In this document: in pieces, positions 4,884 to 62,893 of the stretch
Layout: the number at the start of each line of letters is the position of its first letter
How positions within the stretch are numbered: the stretch's first letter is position 1
NCBI GenBank assembly: GCA_963713925.1
Contig: OY970212.1
Coordinates: 32,001 to 96,000, forward strand
DNA: 64,000 nt
Reading direction: 5' to 3'
From: an uncultured bacterium
GTDB lineage: Bacteria; Babelota; Babeliae; Babelales; Vermiphilaceae
The notes under the pieces: generated by a model
What the model was told of the DNA's origin: nothing
Databases searched by the model: none
The model's input: only the letters and a program-made list of their open reading frames with translations
Program-made: the position numbers and the translations under genes

Positions 4884-5369
4884 TTATTTATTCAATCGTT
4901 TCACATATACATCTAAAACAAAGCTGTCATTTTCATCATCTTCATCAAACTCATCAACTTCTTCTATAACATCGCCCTCTAGAATGAATTGATTGTTCAT
5001 ATCCAAGAAAGCTTGAAGTATTCCAGAATAGTTCTTTACAATATTGACTTTGCATGCAAAAGGCAAGGCTGTAGCAGGTGTTTGAGAAAGTACATTGAAT
5101 CGCAGCTGTAGTACTTGTGGATCAAGCCATAAATAAAAAAGGGCTGGCGTGAGTGGATATTTTTTTATGACAATTTCCGAATAATGTTTTAAAAGTTTTT
5201 CAATGAAATGCGACAAATTATCCAGATTTATTACGTAAAAGGCATCTTTTTCGAATGAAAGTGCCCACATATTATGTTCTATTTCATCCTTTTGATTGCG
5301 ATTAAGGAGAATCTGATCTTCAAATACCGTGTTCAAATCAGATAATTTGTGAATGGCTAAGTAATTCAT
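4884..5369 (-). CDS. Putative immunity protein of the upstream Hint toxin
   Basis: Start overlaps toxin stop (4 nt); small protein with acidic tail; FYLWLDPQVLQLRF motif. Confidence 0.7.
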   Translation of the reverse strand: MNYLAIHKLSDLNTVFEDQILLNRNQKDEIEHNMWALSFEKDAFYVINLDNLSHFIEKLLKHYSEIVIKKYPLTPALFYLWLDPQVLQLRFNVLSQTPATALPFACKVNIVKNYSGILQAFLDMNNQFILEGDVIEEVDEFDEDDENDSFVLDVYVKRLNK

Positions 5370-7168
5370 TTAAAGATAACCTCCTTAAATGGAATAGATA
5401 AGCCAATAGGACCCTTATGCTTCGCTAAAATTGGCAATCCTCGCAAATCAGCGTCATATTGCCATTCAAAACTAGTAGAACCTTTTTTGAAGACTTTAGA
5501 ATGAGGACCTCCATGACCAGCCGTATCTCTTGACCACCACAACCCAGTTGCCGGATCACGATACAAATTACCAAATCGTTTTGAGCGAACTTTTTTGTCA
5601 GATCGTTTCTTCAATTTTTTAAAGAAATCATCTTCATCATCGTCATCCTCAGGATCTTCAGGAGGAATAAAGCTTCCTTTTTTTACTTTAGCCTCAGTAA
5701 GTTCTTTTGCAATTTTTGATTCACGATTTTTATTCAAACGATTATTAGTCTCATTCTTTAGATAATTAACATTGTAGTTTCTTCGAATAAGAGCCTCTTC
5801 ATTAACTCCTTGCCTTTCGATATTTGTCTTTCTCTCTTGGCAAATGAATTCTTCAGTAGATTTAATGTTTGATTCTTGCTGGCTGATGATTTTATCTATA
5901 TTGGTTGTTTGTTTTAAAATCGAAGCATTTGCCCTATCTCTATAGTACGCAACAGCAAGTCTTAACTCATAGTTCCTATTTTCAATATTTTTAAGTATCT
6001 CTTCTAGCTTGAGATGAATTTCTTGATACTGATAAACAATCATATGATTGGACAGATTTGTTCGATTATTGTTCCAATCACGAACTGCTTGTTCAACCGC
6101 GGGGCTAATGTCTGTAAATTCTTTAATCGCGTTATCTCTTGCCACAATCAATTCATTAAAATGAAACGATAGCGTGATTTGAAGGTCTATGATTTCTTGC
6201 TCTAATCGTGTTAATTCATACTCTCGTGTTATCCTCAAGTTAATTCTTTGATCATCGGTAAGTATATTTTCTTGATCAAATGATGGCTGTATAAATGCCA
6301 AGTCTTTTGCAATGCTATTCTGGGCAAGAAATGAGTATGAAAAACTCAAAGGATTGTTTCTTCTATAAATATTAGTAAAATTTTCTAGTCCACTTATTAT
6401 GTCAGCAAACTGTTTCTTCAGCGTAATCAGCTCAGCTCGCCTCATATCAAAATATTGACGCTCGCTCAAGTCAGCCTTTATATTCAATTTACTCAAATCA
6501 CTATCAATGCAATTTTTTTCCTTAATCATTTGCCATGTATTAACGGCTATAACAGTCAATGCTAATGTTGTTCCTACTGTCAATAAGATAGGATTGTAAA
6601 GAACAATTGAACCAATAATTATCATTGATGATGGGTTTGAAACAACATCCATATTATGAACACAAATGTCCTTTTCTGAGACAAAAAACACATGGTCATC
6701 AACTGTGAGAGCATAACATTCAACATGATCATCTACTATCTCTATTGAATCGACCCGTCCGTTCAATGCCGATTTGCCTAAGCAAACATCAAGCTGACTC
6801 AGCTCCTTTGCTTTCATCCAAGAATTTTGACCTGGGAGATAAAATTTTTGATCTAAAGCAGCCCTGATAATTTCGTTTTTTAAGATAACATTTAGATATT
6901 TTGAAATGTTTCTTTTTGTAATGCAAACAACTTGTTTGTCTGAATCGTTTCCAATTACAAACTCGCCGATCTTTATATCCTCTATGGATTTATAACCACC
7001 TGGAACTTTGATTTGTGTTCCAGCTAAGAATCCCTCTTGAGAACCAAAATCTTGAGCGATTGAACAATCAATTGTTTTTGATTCTTTTTTAATCAGATCT
7101 CCGAAATCTTGAGATGATACTGCTGATGATAAAAAACTCAATATTAAGACTAAAAACTTGGATGACAT
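5366..7168 (-). CDS. Sec-signal Hint-domain polymorphic toxin with putative C-terminal RNase domain
   Basis: Signal peptide; GFLAGTQI..KSIEDIKIGE..FFVSEKDICVHN Hint; hydrophobic helix; coiled coil; PPEDPEDDDD linker; WWSRDTAGHGG..KVF..KHKG tip. Confidence 0.8.
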   Translation of the reverse strand: MSSKFLVLILSFLSSAVSSQDFGDLIKKESKTIDCSIAQDFGSQEGFLAGTQIKVPGGYKSIEDIKIGEFVIGNDSDKQVVCITKRNISKYLNVILKNEIIRAALDQKFYLPGQNSWMKAKELSQLDVCLGKSALNGRVDSIEIVDDHVECYALTVDDHVFFVSEKDICVHNMDVVSNPSSMIIIGSIVLYNPILLTVGTTLALTVIAVNTWQMIKEKNCIDSDLSKLNIKADLSERQYFDMRRAELITLKKQFADIISGLENFTNIYRRNNPLSFSYSFLAQNSIAKDLAFIQPSFDQENILTDDQRINLRITREYELTRLEQEIIDLQITLSFHFNELIVARDNAIKEFTDISPAVEQAVRDWNNNRTNLSNHMIVYQYQEIHLKLEEILKNIENRNYELRLAVAYYRDRANASILKQTTNIDKIISQQESNIKSTEEFICQERKTNIERQGVNEEALIRRNYNVNYLKNETNNRLNKNRESKIAKELTEAKVKKGSFIPPEDPEDDDDEDDFFKKLKKRSDKKVRSKRFGNLYRDPATGLWWSRDTAGHGGPHSKVFKKGSTSFEWQYDADLRGLPILAKHKGPIGLSIPFKEVIFK

Positions 7169-42453: not shown

Positions 42454-44001
42454 ATGAACAAAATATCCAATCAAAATATCTTCTTTTTCATCTTACTTTC
42501 TCTGTATTCGTATAATATATTCGCTGGATTTCCCGCAGGAACACCGGTTAAAACAACAAGTGGATATCAGCCAATTGAAACAATCAAATCAGGCCACCAT
42601 CTTACCTCGTATGATACAAATGCGGGCTTTATTGAAAATCGAGTAAATTTTTCTTGGGCACAAGCTACCGACATATGCATTGTTATCCATTATCTTGAAA
42701 CTGAACTGATTTCAAACGCAAAACAACAGTTTTATCTTCCTGAATCGGCTTCATGGGTTGCGGCACGTGAGTTAAAGCCAGGCGACAAATTGCTTTCGGC
42801 AAAACATGGACATATCGTCATTGATGCAGTTGAACAACTTCCTTTTGCAGGGTTTACTCATTGTGTACGCTTTGATAATATTCACAATTTTTGTGTATCG
42901 CACGATGACATCGTCACGCATAATAGCGCCGGCCTTACATGGAAAATGAGACTCTGGCCCCCTCCAACTCCTCTTGAAATCGGGCTAGGAGTTCTTTTTA
43001 CTGTTGGCGCAATTGTTGTAAGAAAAATCATGACCAATTTTGGGGCCCATGAAGATACGCATGGAAAAGATGGTGTTTATCGCGGGAATCAACATCTTGC
43101 TGATTTGCGATATCAATACAACCCTGAAACTGATTTTGATAATCCATATGCATATTATCACCACAAGCAAGAAACTGAGGGCTATTATAATCCAAATTAC
43201 GAACATTCTTCATCTTTCCTCAACAACGATGATATTTCTGCTCATAATGAAACGTACACAGGGCATCTTCATAATGAAGCTATCGCTCAAAACATATATC
43301 ATCAAAAAGTGTCCTCAACCCAAAATATTCCACCTGCGATTAGCATAGAGCCTTCAGTCGACAACAATGCGTTACAATCGGCTCAAGCTCCCACCCAAAC
43401 TTCGATTACCACAATTTCAGGTCTTAATACTGAAACTGCATACTGTCCGACAACAATTCCTGATCCGGAGGTTCGAAAACAGCCACATGGCTGCCCAACC
43501 CCGCCACCTCCTACACCAACTCACACCGGCGGAGAGCAAATACCAAAACACGAACCAACTATTTTTGTAACACCGACACAACCACCTCAAGAAAAACCAA
43601 CCGGTTGTTATCCACTTCCGTGGCCGGAAGGAACATCCTCCGGACTTATTCTCAAGCAAGAAATTACACGAGAGAGACCTGCTGCTCAAGGAGGTAAAAT
43701 AAAAACAGTTGACGACATTCTTAAAGACGCAGAACCATTTACTGACAATAAGAAGCGATCTGATCAAGGACGAGCCGACATCTATGTAAAGCCGGGAGGT
43801 TTTGATGATGCATTGCAAGATTTTGAATCGCTGGGGCCAACAAATATTAGAGAGATACGTAACGGTAATAAGGGAAAAGTTGGGGATTTGCCTGATGGAA
43901 GAACCGCAAATGTTCGAGTCAAGAGCGACGACGGAAGAGCGACACTCGAAATTTATAATCCAGTTGATGAGAAAAGTATAAAAATTAGATACGGAGAATA
44001 G
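42454..44001 (+). CDS. Sec-signal Hint-domain polymorphic toxin with C-terminal toxin domain
   Basis: Signal ..NIFA then GFPAGTPV; HNFCVSHDDIVTHN; TM helix; Pro-rich linker; KPGGFDDALQDF..LPDG..VR..S..TLEI..KIRY tip. Confidence 0.8.
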   Translation: MNKISNQNIFFFILLSLYSYNIFAGFPAGTPVKTTSGYQPIETIKSGHHLTSYDTNAGFIENRVNFSWAQATDICIVIHYLETELISNAKQQFYLPESASWVAARELKPGDKLLSAKHGHIVIDAVEQLPFAGFTHCVRFDNIHNFCVSHDDIVTHNSAGLTWKMRLWPPPTPLEIGLGVLFTVGAIVVRKIMTNFGAHEDTHGKDGVYRGNQHLADLRYQYNPETDFDNPYAYYHHKQETEGYYNPNYEHSSSFLNNDDISAHNETYTGHLHNEAIAQNIYHQKVSSTQNIPPAISIEPSVDNNALQSAQAPTQTSITTISGLNTETAYCPTTIPDPEVRKQPHGCPTPPPPTPTHTGGEQIPKHEPTIFVTPTQPPQEKPTGCYPLPWPEGTSSGLILKQEITRERPAAQGGKIKTVDDILKDAEPFTDNKKRSDQGRADIYVKPGGFDDALQDFESLGPTNIREIRNGNKGKVGDLPDGRTANVRVKSDDGRATLEIYNPVDEKSIKIRYGE

Positions 44002-44004
44002 GAT

Positions 44005-44412
44005 ATGACTGAACAGTGGGAGCGCTGGGATCCAATGCCTGGGTTGCTAAAAAAATATTATGCCGAAAAAGTTATAGAAACTCCGAATGGATTCTCATTG
44101 ATGCTTATTGGATACGAAAAGAATCAAGAAAGTGAAATTTTGCTTGATTTTGGAAAATCGGTCAAGGCATACAGAAACGTTTATGAAACCTTTCGCGATA
44201 ACCTTATCATAGATTTGGATGAAAAATACGGAACAGGTTTCTATGGAGAGTGGACCTTTTTTAAAGTCAAAAATTCAGAGTATTTCAATCTTATCGAAAA
44301 AAAGTTTCTTGGAACCTCTCCAAATGCGTCCTTTTCACATTTTTGTTTGATCTTGGCAGAATCGGTTATCGATATTATAGCTTACGATGAACCAAAAATT
44401 ACCGTGTTATAA
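44005..44412 (+). CDS. Putative cognate immunity protein
   Basis: Begins 3 nt after toxin stop; EQWERWDP, WTFFKVKNSEY, HFCL. Confidence 0.75.
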   Translation: MTEQWERWDPMPGLLKKYYAEKVIETPNGFSLMLIGYEKNQESEILLDFGKSVKAYRNVYETFRDNLIIDLDEKYGTGFYGEWTFFKVKNSEYFNLIEKKFLGTSPNASFSHFCLILAESVIDIIAYDEPKITVL

Positions 44413-44431
44413 AAATGATTGGATCAAAATC

Positions 44432-44848
44432 ATGATATCCGAAAATTGGGAACGATGGGAACCGTTACCAAGCCTTTGCACAAAGTACTCCTTAGAAAAA
44501 ATAATAGAAGAAGGGGAAGTTTCTATAGTATTATCCGGTCACAAAAATGAGACAAGTAGAATCTTGCTAAAGATTAGCCGTCTGTTCGCCTATACAGTGA
44601 CGAAAAATTCATTCGACGATAAACTTTTTAACGATTTACAAGAAAAATACGGCCCTGAATTTCATACCACTTGGACCTTTTTCAAAGTCAATAATTCTGA
44701 TTTTATCAAATGGATTGATCAAGAATCATCCACTATTGCGTCCAGTTGGGCAAGGGAAGAAAAACCTATGCAACATTTTTGTTTGATTACCATGGAAGAA
44801 GTTATAGACATCATGGTGTACGGTGAACCAAAAATAACTCGGCTGTAG
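44432..44848 (+). CDS. Paralogous (orphan) immunity protein
   Basis: ENWERWEP, WTFFKVNNSDF, HFCL..EPKIT: clear paralog of 44005..44412. Confidence 0.75.
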   Translation: MISENWERWEPLPSLCTKYSLEKIIEEGEVSIVLSGHKNETSRILLKISRLFAYTVTKNSFDDKLFNDLQEKYGPEFHTTWTFFKVNNSDFIKWIDQESSTIASSWAREEKPMQHFCLITMEEVIDIMVYGEPKITRL

Positions 44849-45022: not shown

Positions 45023-45325
45023 ATGCTATTTGGTTTGCTGACAACTCTCTTTATTATCATTGGAATTTTCCTTATACTCCTCGTTCTCATTCAGCAAGGT
45101 AAGGGAAATATGGGCTTTGGAAACATGGGTGGCGCTACCCAAATGATCTTTGGTGGATCAGGTGGACAAGACGTTTTCCAAAAAACTACCTGGGTTTTAG
45201 GAGCACTATTTATGGGACTTTCAATGCTTCTTGCTCTTATGCGGGCTCAAAGCCTTCCTTTCTATCACCATGCTCGTACCCAAGCTCCTGTGAGCGCACC
45301 GGCTCAAGCGGGGGATGTTGAGTAA
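45023..45325 (+). CDS. secG: Preprotein translocase subunit SecG
   Basis: LVLIQQGKG..FGGSGG..FQKTTW. Confidence 0.9.
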   Translation: MLFGLLTTLFIIIGIFLILLVLIQQGKGNMGFGNMGGATQMIFGGSGGQDVFQKTTWVLGALFMGLSMLLALMRAQSLPFYHHARTQAPVSAPAQAGDVE

Positions 45326-50080: not shown

Positions 50081-51292
50081 ATGGCATTATATTTTTACAA
50101 AGCGCTATCAAAAGATGGAAAGCGAGTCTCTGGACAGCTTGATGGTACCTCTGTAAATAATGCCAAAGAACAACTCGTTGCACGCGGCCTTTATCCAACC
50201 GAAGTACTTTCTGCCCAAGAACGAGCCGCATCGAGCTGGTGGCGGTCACTCTTTATCAAAGGTTTTAAGCTTAAGCAAAAAATTTATTTCACGAATCAAC
50301 TTATTGTTTTGCTCAAAGCAGGAATTCCACTTTTACAAGCGCTTGAATTGTTAACCGATCAGTTTAGCGGTTCATTACGGCAAATGCTCATTGCTATCAA
50401 AGATGATGTAAAACAAGGTACTTCCTTTGCGCAAGCAATTGCCCAATACCCCAAAAGTTTTGATTCTATTTATGTCCAACTCGTGCGCGCCGGAGAAGCG
50501 AGCGGTAAATTGGAAGTGGTTTTGGAACGATTAGTTGCATATCTTGAACGTAAGCAAGAAACATCAAAGCGCATCAAAGATGCCTTGATGATGCCAATTA
50601 TTCAGCTTGTGATTGCCGTTATCGTCACTGGCGTCATGCTTTATTTTGTTGTCCCCCAAATGGCAGAAACATTCACAAAAATGGGGACCAAACTTCCTGC
50701 TATTACAGAATTTGTCATGAAAATCTCTAACGGGTTGCGATCATATTTTCTACCAATACTGCTTGTTATCGGCGCTGTGATTGGGATTTTTTTCTACTGG
50801 AAATCAACGCCGAACGGAAAATATGCACTTGATGTCATAAAGCTTAAAATTCCGGGAGTTAGCTATTTTGTGCGCATGAATGCGGTCGTACAATTTTGTT
50901 ATACGCTCGGGCTGTTGCTTCAAAACGGTGTCAATTTAGCGGAAGCACTTGATATTGTAGTGCGTATTGTTAATAACCAAATTTTAGCGCAAACATTAAG
51001 CCAAGCGCGCGATAAAATCATCAAGCAAGGTAAAATTTCTGCCTACTTAAAACAAACAGAGTTATTTCCCCCTATGGCAATTTATTTAATTAATACGGGA
51101 GAACAATCGGGGGAGTTAGATACAATGCTTTTGAATGTTGCTCGAAATTATGAGGGAGAATTAATTGGCTGGACAGACTCTTTAACAGCTCTCATAAACC
51201 CAATAATGTTGGTATTTATGGCGCTCATAGTAGGGTCAATTATTGCAGCAATTATGCTACCAACATTCAGTGTGATGGATAATATTAAATAG
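50081..51292 (+). CDS. gspF: Type II secretion/type IV pilus inner-membrane platform protein
   Basis: AGIPLLQAL, AGEASGKL, TGEQSGELD, INP. Confidence 0.92.
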   Translation: MALYFYKALSKDGKRVSGQLDGTSVNNAKEQLVARGLYPTEVLSAQERAASSWWRSLFIKGFKLKQKIYFTNQLIVLLKAGIPLLQALELLTDQFSGSLRQMLIAIKDDVKQGTSFAQAIAQYPKSFDSIYVQLVRAGEASGKLEVVLERLVAYLERKQETSKRIKDALMMPIIQLVIAVIVTGVMLYFVVPQMAETFTKMGTKLPAITEFVMKISNGLRSYFLPILLVIGAVIGIFFYWKSTPNGKYALDVIKLKIPGVSYFVRMNAVVQFCYTLGLLLQNGVNLAEALDIVVRIVNNQILAQTLSQARDKIIKQGKISAYLKQTELFPPMAIYLINTGEQSGELDTMLLNVARNYEGELIGWTDSLTALINPIMLVFMALIVGSIIAAIMLPTFSVMDNIK

Positions 51293-51328
51293 TGCATGAG
51301 TACAATAGTATTTTTTTGAAAGGATATT

Positions 51329-51742
51329 ATGAATAGTGTTGCTCACAAATCGTCCCTTCGTCAGGGATTTACCATTATCGAAATTACGATCGTACTTTTA
51401 ATAATTGGTATAATCGGTGGACTTCTTCTCATGAGACAACGTGGCGGCGGGGAAAGAGCGGCTCGTTTGGTTGTTACAAAACAACTACAACAAATTCAAG
51501 CTGCTCTCGATTCTTATGAACAAGATATGGATGGATATCCTGAACAGCTAAGCGATTTATGGACTCCGCCAAGTGACCAAGAAAAAGCAAACAAATGGTC
51601 TGAATATATCTCCAAACCGAAAGTTCCTGCCGGATGGAAGCCATATATTTATGAAAAAACAGAAGGCAGCGAGCGTCCATATGAACTAAGAGCTGTAAGA
51701 AAAGATGGCAAAGGCACAATCAATGCCGCGACTATGGAATAA
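51329..51742 (+). CDS. gspG: T2SS major pseudopilin GspG-like
   Basis: GFTIIE prepilin motif; ALDSY..D..YP. Confidence 0.75.
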   Translation: MNSVAHKSSLRQGFTIIEITIVLLIIGIIGGLLLMRQRGGGERAARLVVTKQLQQIQAALDSYEQDMDGYPEQLSDLWTPPSDQEKANKWSEYISKPKVPAGWKPYIYEKTEGSERPYELRAVRKDGKGTINAATME

Positions 51743-52307
51743 AAAACCCCAAGCATGGATTAAAGATGACCCTCAAAGGCCCGGTTTATACCCGGGCTTC
51801 ACCCTTATTGAAATTATTTTGGTAATCGGAATAATTGGGGTTATGGGTGGGCTTTTTTTACCATCTCTTTTCAGGCAGAAGCCAGACAAAGAAAGACGCA
51901 ACTTTATTGCATCACTCAATCATCTGACAAGTGTTGCTGTACGCAATGGCGCACGGACCGGAAAAATTCAACGTGTTTTATTTGAAATCAGGGAAAGAAA
52001 AATTAGTATCGATGAAGTCGAAAAGCCTGAACGTGGGGATCAAAAAATGGTGACGCGCCCGATCAAAGGAGCTTCACTTTCATCAATCAAAATCCCAAAA
52101 AACATCGATATTACGCGGTTTAGCATCGAAGGCATAAATGAATTTGAAGGTGGGGCGCGTGAAAGGGTCTGGTTTTTCATAATGCCAAGCGGCATTTCCC
52201 AAGACGTGCTCATCACGCTGGTAGACAAAAAAGACAAACGGGGCGGCAAAGCGCGCGTTGTTAATCTCAGTCTCAACCCGTTGCGCTCGGAATGGTTGGT
52301 GGTATGA
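51723..52307 (+). CDS. T2SS minor pseudopilin GspH-like
   Basis: GFTLIE; FFIMPSG; gene order. Confidence 0.7.
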   Translation: MPRLWNKKPQAWIKDDPQRPGLYPGFTLIEIILVIGIIGVMGGLFLPSLFRQKPDKERRNFIASLNHLTSVAVRNGARTGKIQRVLFEIRERKISIDEVEKPERGDQKMVTRPIKGASLSSIKIPKNIDITRFSIEGINEFEGGARERVWFFIMPSGISQDVLITLVDKKDKRGGKARVVNLSLNPLRSEWLVV

Positions 52308-52672
52308 AAAAAATGTTTGCTGGATTCACACTCATCGAAGTGATGCTCACCCTCATGATCGTCTCTCTGACAATCGGCCCGCTCTACGCACTTTATTCAA
52401 CTGTTATCAACTCCTTTACTCGCCGCACCAGAACATATGAATCTCTAACAACTGCGTATTCTGAGCTTTTACGAGTAAGCGTTCAAAAAGAAATCAAAGA
52501 ACGACAAACTCCCGAGCTCACGTTAAAACGAATTACTCCCACAACTTCTTTGAAAAATGTCGAAGCGATTCAAGCGTGGCAAGCGATCGTCAATTGGAAA
52601 GATCGAGGCGCAAGCCGAAAAGGCTCATTGGTCATGTATATAAATAAGAAGTCACCTAATGAGAGTAAATAA
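52304..52672 (+). CDS. T2SS minor pseudopilin GspI-like
   Basis: GFTLIEV; gene order. Confidence 0.7.
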   Translation: MKKMFAGFTLIEVMLTLMIVSLTIGPLYALYSTVINSFTRRTRTYESLTTAYSELLRVSVQKEIKERQTPELTLKRITPTTSLKNVEAIQAWQAIVNWKDRGASRKGSLVMYINKKSPNESK

Positions 52673-53696
52673 ATTAATAGCCTTCTTCAAATGTCAAAAT
52701 GGCCTGTCACGCCATAGCTCGCCATTGCTTGAAAAGCTATCGCGTAGCGACGGCGGAAGAGTGCGCTCCGGTTTCACACTAATCGAAATGATGATCGTGC
52801 TCATGCTCAGCGCAATCATTATTGGCATTATGCTCTCGAGTTATGGTCAACTGCAAAAAGCAACGCGTAGATTTGATTCACGCGTTGATCTGGAATCAAG
52901 CATTTTGGCAATAGCATCATTATTTGAGCGTGACGTATCCGGCGCCTGTATTCCGTTGCAATCATATCAAGCAGAAAAAGAGAAAAGAGCCGAAGAATCC
53001 CGTAAGAAGCAAGATCAGAATTCAGCCACTCAATCTTCACAACAAAAGGGCGGCGCAAAACCTTCACCTAATAATGCTCCCAAACAAGGTGACGAAAAAG
53101 AATCGCAACAAAAAACTCCTGAAGTAAAAGCAATTTTTTATGCAGAAAAAGGCGAAAAAGATATCACGAATCTTTTCACCTGCATCACCAACAATCCTTT
53201 GGATATTTACTGGTCTGAGGGTGCAGGACGTGCAAAACCGAAAATTGCGCGCGTAGTATTCCGATTGAAAAAAAATGAACGAGCGGCACAAGCGCCGTAC
53301 AGTCTCTGGCGGCAAGAAGGTCCTGATTTTGATTATCCATCCTACACAAAATCAGATTCTCAATATCGACAATATCTTGTCTCCGATATGATTTCCAAAT
53401 TTGCACTTACGTTTTATTCACACAAAACTGATAAAGAAGGCAAGACGCAAGAAGAAGTTTCTAAGCTGGAATATGGCAGCAATCAAGAAGTGAGTTTAGA
53501 GCTACCACAATTGGTAACTCTGGATATCACCGCGTATGATCCGAGGCAAAAACGAAGCCAATCATTTTCAATGACTTATCGCGTTTGGGGACAGCCGATT
53601 AAGATTGAAGAATCCGCCTCCACCAAGGCTACGGCGGGACAGGGCAGCCAAAGCGGCGACAAAGATGAAAACAAGGGTAAACCGAGACCACAGTAA
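52659..53696 (+). CDS. T2SS minor pseudopilin GspJ-like
   Basis: GFTLIEMM, FERDVS, LWRQE, LPQLV; unusually long leader. Confidence 0.7.
   Translation: MRVNKLIAFFKCQNGLSRHSSPLLEKLSRSDGGRVRSGFTLIEMMIVLMLSAIIIGIMLSSYGQLQKATRRFDSRVDLESSILAIASLFERDVSGACIPLQSYQAEKEKRAEESRKKQDQNSATQSSQQKGGAKPSPNNAPKQGDEKESQQKTPEVKAIFYAEKGEKDITNLFTCITNNPLDIYWSEGAGRAKPKIARVVFRLKKNERAAQAPYSLWRQEGPDFDYPSYTKSDSQYRQYLVSDMISKFALTFYSHKTDKEGKTQEEVSKLEYGSNQEVSLELPQLVTLDITAYDPRQKRSQSFSMTYRVWGQPIKIEESASTKATAGQGSQSGDKDENKGKPRPQ
52702..52759 (+). repeat. REP-like family C unit in the gspJ-like leader
   Basis: TGTCACGCCATAGC..TAGCGACGGCGGAA ends identical to the copy at about 53905-53935. Confidence 0.75.
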
Positions 53697-53728
53697 GGTA
53701 ATGCATGTTCTGTAGAGTTTTTAAAAAT

Positions 53729-53951
53729 GTTCGAATGGTTCGACTTCGCCTTGCTACGCTCACCACGAACGAACGGGGTCCTCATGCTTGCGCATGGGGT
53801 AAAACGGAAAAAAAAAGAAAAAGATTATCAGGACATAGTAAAGTCACCGTTCGTGGTGAGCGCAATGTAATGGAGTCGAACCATTCGAACCGGCCCCATG
53901 CAGCTTGTCACGCCATAGCCTTAGCGACGGCGGAAAGCGTGGGTAAAACGG
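53729..53951. repeat. Inverted pair of family A units with nested family B and C elements
   Basis: GTTCGAATGGTTCGACT..CTCACCACGAAC; CCGTTCGTGGTGAGC..AGTCGAACCATTCGAAC; GGGGTCCTCATG..CATGGGGT; GGCCCCATG[family C]GTGGGT. Confidence 0.8.
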
Positions 53952-53963
53952 CGGAAACGAGAA

Positions 53964-55124
53964 ATGGAGCCTATTGTGTTTAAAAAAATAACAAAATCTC
54001 GACACACTTCCGGTTATATTATGATTTTTGCACTCATGCTCGTAGGAGTGCTCACCGGCGTTGCTACTTTTGTTGCACTGCGCTCAAGCATTTTTACCCC
54101 GCGCATTAAACAATCAGAAGATTTTCTGCAGGCTCGTTTACTTGCATACTCGGGCATAGAAATTGTGTGCGCACAGCTCACTGAATGGCTTACCGAAAAA
54201 AAGCAGGAAGGACAAGAACAAACGGGCCAGCAAAACCAAACTCGGAATGGGCCCGCAAATCTTGGTCTCAATAATCAAAAAAAGAAGTCGCCTTTGGTGC
54301 AAATATTTGAAAAACTATTGCCAAAGCTCAACGTCTGGCAAGAACTCAAACTCAATACAAAGGAACATGGTGTTAATGGCGTAATTAAAACATGCATTAC
54401 TGCCGAATCGGGCAAAATCGATCTCAACGCATTGTGGGATTTCAAACAAAAACGATTTGTTTTTGAAGGGCAGGAAAAAAATCCGACAGCAGCATACGCC
54501 GGACTTATTCCCACGGCGCCTGCCCCCAAAGAATTGTGGGCAGATATCTTCAAAAAAATAGAACAACTGTCTGGTGGCACCAATTTGTTAACTGCGCTCG
54601 GCGAATATTTTAAAAAGCGTGGATTTATCATTAACGATCCGACTGATCTATTGATGATTAAAGAATTTGAAGTGTTCCAATACCGCCAATTTTATAACCC
54701 TGACGAACCGAATACGATTGCGCTAAGCGATATTTTCACAACGGTGTATCAAGATCGCATGATCGACCCTATACTTTTCTCTTCAAGCATGAAAAAAATA
54801 TTAGATATTCCCGTTGATTCTGAAAAAAAAGATATTACAGAATTGTTAAATGCCTACAATGACCAGGCAAACTGGAAAAGCGATTGGAATAAAATCTTAC
54901 GATCGTGGTATGAAAAAGACTTTAATAATTTACCCAAAGGAATAGAATCTATTTTGAGTAGAAAATCTGTGCCAAAACTCTTTTCTGTGCTATCGTACGC
55001 AATAATTGGGAAAACGACAGTAAAAATGCTTGCAATCGTCCAACTTGATAAAAAAGAAAAAAAGAGCGATGGTAAGAAAAGTGAAGTCGTTGAAGTCACT
55101 ATAAGAAATTTGTTTTGGTTGTGA
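53964..55124 (+). CDS. T2SS minor pseudopilin GspK-like
   Basis: SGYIMIFAL, QARLLAYSGIE, AESGKIDLN. Confidence 0.75.
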   Translation: MEPIVFKKITKSRHTSGYIMIFALMLVGVLTGVATFVALRSSIFTPRIKQSEDFLQARLLAYSGIEIVCAQLTEWLTEKKQEGQEQTGQQNQTRNGPANLGLNNQKKKSPLVQIFEKLLPKLNVWQELKLNTKEHGVNGVIKTCITAESGKIDLNALWDFKQKRFVFEGQEKNPTAAYAGLIPTAPAPKELWADIFKKIEQLSGGTNLLTALGEYFKKRGFIINDPTDLLMIKEFEVFQYRQFYNPDEPNTIALSDIFTTVYQDRMIDPILFSSSMKKILDIPVDSEKKDITELLNAYNDQANWKSDWNKILRSWYEKDFNNLPKGIESILSRKSVPKLFSVLSYAIIGKTTVKMLAIVQLDKKEKKSDGKKSEVVEVTIRNLFWL

Positions 55125-59294: not shown

Positions 59295-61028
59295 ATGCGT
59301 TCAAATATTAACCGGACTATAAAACTCTTCGAGTTTACAGTCCGAAGATATTCGGTTCTTAGTCTTTTTATCATCCTCTCGATTTTTTCAACACAAATCT
59401 TTCCAACCAACAACGATTCATACAATCCTGAATATTGGCACAATCAGAAAGATCAACCGGTGAGTTCGGGAGATCAGCTACGATTTGATGAAATCAGAAA
59501 AGAAGATGACAAACAATTTGCACCGCGTTCAACCGGCATTCCTTATCTTGATGCCGCAATCAATGTCGCTTTGTTGGCATACTGCGCATCTACACAAGGC
59601 CGCGATCGACGATTAGAAAACAATAAAGAAGCTGAGGCGGCTTGGCTTAGAAGGGCCGGCATACCCTGTCCCGATCCGCAACAACAATACACACCTCCTC
59701 CGCAAAAACCACAACCAAAACCTGAGCCGCAACTTCCTCCCATGACACCCCAGCAAAGAGAAATTCATCAGCGATTTGAGCAAGATTTTCCGGAATATGT
59801 GCGACAAAACAATGAATTGAGAGATTGGTGTCTTCAGCATTTTGAACAAATTGAGCTCTTTGATCGATTCAAATGGCGCGGAGTTCCAACAAATGACCCA
59901 GGGTTTCCACGTGAATATCACTCTCAATTACCTTCAGATCTGAGCAATCATCTTAGGGAATATGGAGTTGATCCCGACAACTGGAGCAATGTGTGTTACA
60001 ACAACATACAGTGTTATGTCCATGCCGATTCTATGCGACTGCTTCGACGCACGATGCATCCTTTTAAAAGCGATTTTCTAAATGACTGCAGAGGGGATAT
60101 TGTTCAAACGCTTGATGCGGGAAGAGCTTTCAATGCGCAAGGCTATTGCTCAAAAGCAGGACGAGTAAACGATTTTTGTGCTGTTCTCATGGATTATGGA
60201 GAAGCTACTCTTGGCGGAGCCGCAAGCGGAATTTGTGAAGCTCTTAATTATGCTTGGGAGCATAAAGGAGCTCTTGTAATTGGTGGAGCTGCCGCGATCG
60301 CAATTGCCGGATACCCGGCAGTTGCAACTGCTTTAACAACCGCCGTCGTAGTCGCCAATGTTGCTCCGATCTGTTGGGAAATAGGTCAAGGATTAGGCGA
60401 ATGGATTTGCGAAGATAAAATAGCATTGGATGAACGATTAAATCGCAACCTCGGGCCCTTTTTTGACAAAAAAGCTGAGATCGATGCCGGAACGCGTGGG
60501 CTCAAAGATTGTGTGCGTGATGTTGCTCAATCCGGCGGACTCATTGGCGCGGAGATCCTGCTGACAAGGGGCGCAGGAACCATTATCCAAAAAGCTGCAA
60601 AACATGCCGGAAAGGTTATCAAAAAAATTGGCAAGCCCGGCAAAGAACGCTACCAAATGGTTACTCCTGATGGACATGTTGTCGATGTCGTGGATGATGC
60701 TACAAAAGCTCAACATCGTCTCAAAAGCGCCAACAGCAAAATTGATACCGAGAAAAATATCCCCCAAGCAACTCGAACGATAGAAAAGGCTGCGAAAAAA
60801 TTTACCACCAAAGAAGCAACTGAAATGGCAGAAAAATTGGGGTTCAAAAAGACAAATTACTTTTCTCATGGACAGCCCATTTTCAAGAAAGGAAGCAAAT
60901 ATATCACCATAGATATGGATCAACATAATGGAGGTGTTTGGAAGATGGCGGATTCAGTTGAAAATCTATCTCGAAAATCAACTCGCTTGGGAACTTATGA
61001 TGAATTTTTAAATAGAATAGGCGACTAG
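59295..61028 (+). CDS. Sec-signal polymorphic toxin with Ntox21-like RNase tip
   Basis: LGFKKT..SHGQPIFKKG..YITIDMDQHNGGVWK..RLGTYD..RIGD matches the DxDxxxH-like, RxGT and RxxD Ntox21 pattern. Confidence 0.85.
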   Translation: MRSNINRTIKLFEFTVRRYSVLSLFIILSIFSTQIFPTNNDSYNPEYWHNQKDQPVSSGDQLRFDEIRKEDDKQFAPRSTGIPYLDAAINVALLAYCASTQGRDRRLENNKEAEAAWLRRAGIPCPDPQQQYTPPPQKPQPKPEPQLPPMTPQQREIHQRFEQDFPEYVRQNNELRDWCLQHFEQIELFDRFKWRGVPTNDPGFPREYHSQLPSDLSNHLREYGVDPDNWSNVCYNNIQCYVHADSMRLLRRTMHPFKSDFLNDCRGDIVQTLDAGRAFNAQGYCSKAGRVNDFCAVLMDYGEATLGGAASGICEALNYAWEHKGALVIGGAAAIAIAGYPAVATALTTAVVVANVAPICWEIGQGLGEWICEDKIALDERLNRNLGPFFDKKAEIDAGTRGLKDCVRDVAQSGGLIGAEILLTRGAGTIIQKAAKHAGKVIKKIGKPGKERYQMVTPDGHVVDVVDDATKAQHRLKSANSKIDTEKNIPQATRTIEKAAKKFTTKEATEMAEKLGFKKTNYFSHGQPIFKKGSKYITIDMDQHNGGVWKMADSVENLSRKSTRLGTYDEFLNRIGD

Positions 61029-61544
61029 ATGCTTTATTTCAGAATAACAAAATATAATCCTATCTTTAGAAATGAACATGGTCACTACAAAAAAGATGAT
61101 TGGAGTAGCGTCAGCGATATAGGAAAAACTTTTGATGGCGAATTATTAACAGCTGCTGATTATTTAAATATCGAAAATGCATATGTTAAAGCCATTACAA
61201 TGTTAATGAAAACTTTACATATAAAGGTTTTAACAATTTCAAAGCTGGAAAAACGTAGAATAATTCCTTCTCCCATCACACCTTCCAAAGGATTATTGGA
61301 TACTCACAGTGCGATTGTAAACAATCAAAAGGTTTCAGTTGAAGTTGTCGCTAATATTGTAAGACTTGCATTGAGAGAAGATATATGGTGTGAACTTTTA
61401 TCTCCTGAAATGGAAGTTTATTTTGGATACGATTATTATATGTATGCCGCTGTTTCGCATATTGACCAAACATTAATCGATACGATTGAAGAAACGGGTC
61501 TTTTTGTTGAACAAATGGATGACATTCCTTGGCGTAGTTCATGA
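61029..61544 (+). CDS. Putative cognate immunity protein
   Basis: Starts directly after toxin stop; RITKYNP..W.S.SDIG..LRE.IWC..FGYDYYMY..GLFVE. Confidence 0.75.
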   Translation: MLYFRITKYNPIFRNEHGHYKKDDWSSVSDIGKTFDGELLTAADYLNIENAYVKAITMLMKTLHIKVLTISKLEKRRIIPSPITPSKGLLDTHSAIVNNQKVSVEVVANIVRLALREDIWCELLSPEMEVYFGYDYYMYAAVSHIDQTLIDTIEETGLFVEQMDDIPWRSS

Positions 61545-62416: not shown

Positions 62417-62893
62417 ATGCCAGAATATTTCGAAATATCTTTCATATCAAAAAAAATCGCTCCAAAAGAAAAAATTTCTGATCTTTTTCTTACTCGGATT
62501 CATTTACAGGAAGGCGAAAACTATCTCATACACAGTGACTATGCCTTGATGCAAAAGAAAAACATATTATTTCACATATATGAATATGACGATACTGATT
62601 ATCTTGAATCTACTATCAGTATTCCCGAAATGAAATTTTACAAGAAATCGTTTGATAGAGAACTAGAAGAAATTAAAAAAATCGTGTTGGCATGTTCTCA
62701 GTTTTATACCTTTGAATTTGCGGTTTGCAGCTATGAAATGAATAGTTATTTTATCACCAATGTTAAAACAATTAATGATATGGATGACGCATTTCTGCTA
62801 CAATTCCCCATTTACTTCAACAATAGCGTTAAAAAATCATTTGGTATGTACGTCAATGTAGCAGCGCAAGAAATCTTTGTAGATGAAGATTAA
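62417..62893 (+). CDS. Putative orphan immunity protein
   Basis: Last gene of AT-rich array after the toxin; FAVCSYE. Confidence 0.5.
   Translation: MPEYFEISFISKKIAPKEKISDLFLTRIHLQEGENYLIHSDYALMQKKNILFHIYEYDDTDYLESTISIPEMKFYKKSFDRELEEIKKIVLACSQFYTFEFAVCSYEMNSYFITNVKTINDMDDAFLLQFPIYFNNSVKKSFGMYVNVAAQEIFVDED

Follow-up and report, generated by a model that had tools for sequence, protein, structure and literature searches.

The question raised by this locus is what a Hint domain can still do at the front of a toxin-like protein when the residues for its N-terminal chemistry are gone. The locus lies in a window of 64,000 nucleotides, the whole stretch analysed here, which is part of a genome made of a single contig of 1.32 Mb, and it consists of one open reading frame of 515 residues (42454-44001, + strand). 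Based on the sequence, we propose that the protein is quite probably a polymorphic toxin exported by the Sec route, in which the Hint domain would be a natural cap that only cleaves, that it likely kills bacteria, and that the genes downstream would give immunity.

The protein is composed, in order, of a signal-like segment, the Hint domain, a hydrophobic helix, a linker, a Pro/Thr stalk and a tip, with two small genes on the 3' side (Table 1). Its N-terminus has a hydrophobic stretch at residues 9-27 and then NIFA/GFPAGT, the codon of Gly25 being at 42526. The hydrophobic 19-mer after the Hint (residues 176-194) has a mean KD of 1.76, and the stalk from residue 329 to 412 is 38% Pro plus Thr, with Cys331 in YCP, Cys347 in GCP and Cys385 in GCYP. 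The tip, of about 100 residues (413-515), terminates in KIRYGE. An ATP/ADP transporter gene adjoins the toxin gene.

Table 1. Features of the toxin gene and of the two small genes after it (window positions)
Feature	Position	Strand	Basis and remarks
Predicted Sec signal peptide, aa 1-24	42454..42525	+	Hydrophobic core, small residue at -1; predicted cleavage after Ala24
Hint domain, aa 25-157; predicted cleave-only cap	42526..42924	+	PF07591, structure model, family counts
Hydrophobic helix within predicted new N-terminus, aa 158-195	42925..43038	+	Hydropathy; likely membrane-crossing role
Variable linker, then stalk rich in Pro/Thr, with three Cys	43039..43689	+	Composition; recombination breakpoint near 43500
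C-terminal toxin tip, aa 413-515; putative activity	43690..44001	+	C-terminal placement on many carriers
Putative cognate immunity gene 1, 135 aa	44005..44412	+	Family coupled to tip; begins 3 nt past the toxin stop
Putative immunity gene 2	44387..44848	+	Paralog of gene 1 (46% identical); likely start 44432

The protein scores 30.9 bits with the PT-HINT model PF07591 (cut-off 27.7), the structure model of its Hint is all-beta with a pLDDT of 95.6, and the nearest solved sequence is that of 2LWY, a bacterial intein-like domain (E 4.5e-28). According to PMC4031507, the N-terminal site works with Cys1, Thr-B7 and His-B10, and the cyclisation of Asn with His-F13, His-G6 and Asn-G7. In the present Hint, residue 1 is Gly25, block B is SNAKQQF (residues 87-93) with Asn88 at B7 and Gln91 at B10, block F has Cys137 at F4 and His144 at F13, and the domain ends in Thr155-His156-Asn157, followed by Ser158 at +1. 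The features named in the original prediction (Gly1, SNAKQ in block B, an intact THN/S, the hydrophobic helix and the Pro/Thr stalk with Cys) are thus all read in the frame. As the N-terminal catalytic set is lost and the cyclisation set is kept, we infer that cleavage would occur solely after the Asn. The other Hint protein of the window (5366-7168, - strand), for which the original prediction claimed the same catalytic losses, has Gly46 at position 1, Gln at B10 and a His-Asn end; the two Hints are identical at 47 of 124 positions and nothing aligns outside them, the stalk and tip being different. It is also noted that this other Hint toxin (locus 4884-7168, - strand) has about 27 additional residues between signal and Gly1 and a helical stalk; each of the six members of its tip family is paired with one downstream family, and an orphan copy of its downstream gene is present at G000:614825.

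The pattern can be followed through the family. A profile built from five Hints and run on 261 genomes of Babelota/Dependentiae gives 279 matches, which are distributed over 109 of the 261 genomes and 72 of 145 genera, and the independent PF07591 model matches 89 of the 261 genomes, mostly in the same places. The aligned sample joins the best 30 loci per search to 30 loci of genomes with low scores and to roughly 100 others, most of which the PF07591 list supplied, amounting to 184 of the 279 matches. Two of these domains have Cys1 and were treated as inteins, because they are buried in long enzymes without a signal and still have His at B10; dropping them leaves 182. From their motifs we take the two intein hosts (L068, L174) to be gyrase B-like and DEAD/H helicase-like proteins. 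In the 182 sampled domains, residue 1 is Gly in 158, Ala in 10, Ser in 6, Thr in 1 and never Cys, so that the retention of Cys1 by most homologs, which would have spoken against the original prediction, is not what is found; 175 have no nucleophile at residue 1 (3 of the 175 being alignment gaps). Thr-B7 is present in 35, and B10 is Gln in 155 and His in 12. By contrast, the cyclisation positions are kept, with His-F13 in 155, His-G6 in 177 and Asn-G7 in 173, the latter two being among the most conserved columns of an alignment in which the median pairwise identity is only 28%. F4 is Asp in 34 of 182, and THN is found in 51 of 173. The residue at +1 is hydrophobic in 126 of 173 and Cys, Ser or Thr in 14 of 173, and the Ser of the predicted THN/S, although present here as Ser158, is thus incidental.

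In a library set collected with the same profile, Cys1 Hints have Thr-B7 in 130 of 137 and His-B10 in 134 of 137, whereas Gly1 Hints have them in 9 and 29 of 89, respectively; His-F13 is kept in both. Position within the protein differs too: residue 1 is Gly in 83 of 103 Hints inside the first 70 residues and Cys in 121 of 131 internal Hints, and a hydrophobic segment after the Hint occurs in 77 of 82 Gly1 proteins vs 3 of 39 Cys1 proteins. This pattern suggests that the N-terminal chemistry was lost because it is unneeded where only a signal precedes the Hint. A separate architecture, seen in seven proteins (P0146, P0155, P0170, P0194, P0234, P0237, P0254), has a signal followed by Cys1 Hints in tandem, two to five of them, with short HNK-Gly linkers.

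In a FastTree tree drawn from 131 columns, which resolve little, 59 of 61 Gly1 Hints fall in one clade (support 0.88), and the Gly1 lineage may have arisen once (not rejected, p-AU 0.78). Judged by sequence, the Gly1 Hint group is a lineage of its own, centred on Babelota. Strict confinement to Babelota was considered and rejected, as 6 of 22 loci fell outside the set of Babelota loci, two of the 6 being in a record titled Myxococcales (label only); a few family members are found in records labelled outside Babelota. The two loci of the Myxococcales-titled record (L209, L210) have a Gly1 Hint, a GH19 tip and a signal-bearing downstream gene. The two GH19-tip members have no hydrophobic segment past His-Asn, which is in line with a role of the helix in crossing the membrane.

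With these counts, it may be asked whether the Hint cleaves at all. It could instead be a catalytically dead cap that serves folding, secretion targeting or receptor binding, with the release made by another protease or not made. In the class 2 KlbA intein the loss of His-B10 sharply lowers C-terminal cleavage as well as N-terminal cleavage (PMC4031507), and the Gln-B10 that replaces it in most of the family might then silence the Hint, which counts against the cleave-only reading; moreover, the conserved Gln (B10), Trp77 and Ala80 might have a binding or structural role. However, it is the N-terminal set alone that is gone, and the selective keeping of His-F13, His-G6 and Asn-G7 would not be expected in a dead domain, and a hydrophobic segment begins immediately past the Asn. 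A dead cap is thus unlikely. In the gp41-1 intein, C-terminal cleavage persists after the Cys1-to-Ala change without native exteins, THN promotes this cleavage and Asp-F4 limits it (PMC12245125).

Another point concerns where the mature protein begins. That Gly1 is the exact mature N-terminus, as predicted originally, fits the present sequence but is not a family rule. Of 177 members, 142 have a signal-like hydrophobic 9-mer, defined by hydropathy only, that ends at most 15 residues from the start of the Hint. Among these 142, the residue before Gly1 is His, Glu or Asp in 78, and a small residue is found at -1 in 47 and at -2 only in 66, so that the mature N-terminus is probably often one residue before Gly1. 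After the Hint, a hydrophobic 19-mer (at least 1.2) is present in 172 of 182 members.

With the Hint as a cleave-only cap, the pathway may be described as follows. The signal peptide would export the toxin, and the Hint, preceded by the signal alone, would fold as an N-terminal cap. By analogy with intein chemistry, Asn157 would then cyclise, releasing the fragment that starts at Ser158, after which the exposed hydrophobic helix would insert in the target membrane and carry the tip across. The tip would work in the cytoplasm, where RNA, by a modest preference, is its most likely target. Recombination in the stalk exchanges the tip and the immunity gene jointly.

The exchange can be read within the genome, in which five Hint genes were found. 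The paralog at G000:4568-6172 has 93.6% DNA identity to the present gene over 1168 nt, with 98-100% across the Hint; past position 43500 the identity, taken per 100 nt, drops to 44-64% after values of 86-100%, and the paralog bears a different tip and a different downstream gene. The tip of the present gene is found at four other loci in the genome, at two of them on Hint-less proteins, and the same small-gene family lies 3' each time. At the sequence level, it is shown that tips and immunity genes are swapped together by recombination in the stalk, and the swappable tips that had been proposed are seen both in this paralog pair and in the roughly 50 tip clusters over Babelota. The spaced Cys of the stalk, to which the original prediction also pointed, are real in this protein, but the Cys/Pro stalk occurs in only 13 of 110 family members and is a sub-lineage trait, not a general feature of the family.

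Several further observations were made around these loci. A remnant of 116 nt (G000:C1:10427-10542) matches the 5' end of the toxin gene with 84% identity. Directly after the immunity gene of the paralog lies a gene for 487 residues (G000:C1:6811-8283), which presumably resembles the TROVE/Ro60 RNA-binding protein and is of interest near a putative RNase toxin. The window itself has, at 59295-61544 (+ strand), a signal-bearing toxin without Hint and with an Ntox21 tip (PF15526, 93.6 bits), followed by a 171-residue gene, and another small gene at 62417-62893.

What the tip does can be approached from its carriers and its predicted fold. A profile search with the tip matched 132 longer proteins, 120 of them listed, and in all of the 120 matches listed the tip is C-terminal, the carriers being Rhs, LXG, VENN (CdiA-type), DUF1020 (MafB-type), PT-TG and Hint proteins; those of the Rhs, LXG, VENN and DUF1020 types come from free-living bacteria. 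Within Babelota the tip is present in 31 of 261 genomes. The tip has no match in Pfam or NCBIfam, the PDB sequence search returned repeat-protein noise only, Foldseek with the tip model gave nothing at E<=0.001, and the four tip motifs sought in nine supplementary files of PMC13483458 are absent there. Its Atlas neighbours at 0.92-0.93 are unnamed, and the named Ntox47, Ntox37 and Ntox21 stand at 0.80-0.82. No convincing solved relative was found, and the best VIA match, to the C-terminal domain of teneurin-2 (residues 2575-2667; Z 6.6, rmsd 3.1, 82 aligned), is under the convincing level of that tool.

In the tip model (pLDDT 90.6) a helix precedes a sheet of five strands, and the invariant residues are D42, G68, R74, S77, T83, K96, R98 and Y99. 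The BECR fold is described in PMC3482391 as a helix leading into a meander of four strands, the last of which bears Ser/Thr. In the model, the helix is at residues 36-45, the strands come next and the invariant Thr83 is in the fourth strand after the helix, so that the model is compatible with that description, but the VIA match to chain 5t86_A of a CDI complex is only a weak one (Z 4.2, rmsd 3.6, 72 aligned). We lean slightly towards an RNase-like tip that acts on RNA in the cytoplasm, and it would likely be a metal-independent RNase.

The downstream genes follow the tip closely. By profile, the immunity family is found in 24 of 24 loci bearing this tip vs 6 of 175 other loci, the same two-gene tandem recurs three more times in the genome, and tandem and orphan copies of the family occur. 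This coupling of genes indicates that the two genes 3' of the toxin are likely immunity genes protecting the kin of the producer. Over the phylum, the 173 complete family proteins form about 50 tip clusters, which pair almost one-to-one with clusters of downstream genes (e.g., 20/22, 18/20, 18/19, 14/18). Named tips were found in 8 of 35 members scanned, with nine hits: Ntox37 (2), Ntox21 (1), Ntox33 (1), Ntox35 (2), colicin E3-like (2) and EndoU (1). A downstream gene accompanies 130 of 147 long-cargo members vs only 11 of 26 short-cargo members. In the short-cargo subfamily (L073, L074, L082, L142, L151, L158, L164, L168, L169) His-Asn is followed solely by a Gly/Ala-rich hydrophobic peptide of 59-110 residues, mostly beginning with Gly, and several of these loci have Glu at B10. 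No Pfam family was found in the four such peptides scanned, and we take them to be bacteriocin-like from their general resemblance. Two arrangements of the immunity family are also noted: at G000:C1:547318-549418 (L010) five small co-oriented genes end with a shortened homolog of the family, which is possibly a polyimmunity locus, and at L133:1137-1979 two immunity-family domains are fused in a protein of 274 residues.

The same processing could also be directed at the protist host, with its cytosol or mitochondrion as the main target and the downstream genes guarding against mis-sorted toxin. Babelota isolates are intracellular parasites of protists with many secreted proteins (PMC6561590), type II secretion-like genes lie 6 kb away (50081-55124, + strand; GspF, G, H and K similarities under the NCBIfam cut-offs) in a genome with two secretins, and the short-cargo members are frequently without a downstream gene. 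Yet the tip is shared with Rhs, LXG, VENN and DUF1020 proteins of free-living bacteria, tandem and orphan immunity copies fit toxins arriving from other bacteria, and some 50 exchangeable tips fit an arms race among kin, so that a host target is improbable and a bacterial one is suggested. The arena would rather likely be the rivalry among Babelota or other bacteria in a shared protist host. The genome also has two Omp85 proteins and secG at 45023-45325. A conserved partner gene upstream of family members was sought and none was found, the largest cluster having 2 of 66.

A class 2 or class 3 splicing route via Cys-F4, Thr-G5 and Ser+1, joining or cutting on the N-terminal side, may be thought of from Cys137, Thr155, Ser158 and the non-nucleophilic residue 1 of the protein. 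However, the class 3 reading was rejected because the full WCT triplet occurs in 0 of 121 domains, with Cys-F4 in 5 of 121 and Phe, never Trp, at B12; furthermore, His-B10, essential in both classes (PMC4031507, PMC2807308), is absent, and almost no N-extein remains once the signal is removed, which makes such a route very improbable. That the changes represent the decay of an ordinary PT-HINT toxin has a negligible chance, for although one copy is visibly broken (G000:1205991-1207153, with the Hint partly missing, no His-Asn, the tip in another frame and both downstream genes retained), the same substitutions recur across the Babelota sample, the frames are intact, the fold is predicted confidently, and all 59 pairs that could be measured, out of 63 non-independent ones, give a Hint dN/dS under 1 (median 0.16), in agreement with the conserved mechanism originally predicted.

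No account of the Gly1/Gln-B10 cap or of polymorphic toxins of Babelota was found in a search of openly available papers. The words toxin and intein do not appear in PMC6561590, and neither polymorphic toxin nor intein occurs in PMC12172432. Relative to the literature searched, what is new is the cap that only cleaves, together with where it sits and how widely it ranges; the toxin-immunity logic and the release by Hint are already known. The widest reading stands at about even odds: that Babelota possess a toxin platform built on a self-removing Hint leader, with cargo from nuclease tips that have a membrane-crossing helix to bare, Gly/Ala-rich, bacteriocin-like peptides of 60-110 residues. 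If true, no weapon against other bacteria would have been described before for these obligately intracellular organisms, which would exclude co-infecting rivals with it, and bacteria of small genome would fight others within protists with an exchangeable arsenal that includes several unnamed toxin-immunity pairs. It would likewise be a naturally occurring Hint lineage dedicated to a single step of intein chemistry, whose conserved His-to-Gln change at B10 bears on the uncoupling and timing of C-terminal cleavage. More than 100 diverse candidates for traceless self-cleaving tags, with many +1 residues tolerated, would be provided, a property that engineers have so far had to build by mutation (PMC12245125).

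Finally, the system is compared with known ones. A signal peptide, a HINT autopeptidase, a variable C-terminal toxin and an immunity gene are an established scheme (PMC3482391). The present protein has the export signal (by hydropathy), a tip common to other platforms and a tip-specific gene 3', and shares with the polymorphic toxins of that scheme the signal, the HINT, the variable tip, the adjacent immunity gene, orphan tips and immunity arrays; it differs in that the Babelota Hint comes first after the signal, without Cys1 and mostly without Thr-B7 and His-B10, and is followed by the helix. Neisseria MafB (PMC4524018) is alike in its Sec signal, optional type A Hint, short variable toxin and immunity gene, and the present tip is also found on DUF1020 proteins. 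By contrast, the 515-residue protein has no DUF1020 (no PF06255 match) and no conserved mafA-like upstream partner.

Among inteins, the Hint departs from class 1 in Gly1, Gln-B10, a +1 nucleophile in only 14 of 173 and no N-extein past the signal. It departs from class 2 KlbA (Ala1, Ser-G6, Cys+1, Thr-B7, His-B10, Asp-F4; PMC4031507) in having Gly1, His-G6, Ser+1 and Asn, Gln and Cys at B7, B10 and F4. Of the class 3 set (Trp-B12, Cys-F4, Thr-G5, with His-B10; PMC2807308), it has two of the triplet. Inteins of classes 2 and 3 share the non-nucleophilic first residue, but unlike the Babelota Hint they depend on His-B10 and on a +1 nucleophile and are inserted in host enzymes. The bacterial intein-like domains of type A (e.g., PDB 2LWY) terminate in His-Asn and mostly cleave, C-terminally through Asn cyclisation (PMC4031507); the C-terminal His-Asn and the absence of a +1 nucleophile are common to the Babelota family, whereas type A domains are able to splice and make a thioester at their N-terminus. 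The cleaving inteins with C1A (gp41-1, Npu DnaE, Mtu RecA; PMC12245125) are alike in their non-nucleophilic residue 1; in the Babelota Hint, F4 is often not Asp, the present copy has THN, and a traceless C-terminal release is predicted. While those C1A inteins are laboratory mutants, the Babelota family is natural, diverse, under purifying selection and marked by Gln-B10.
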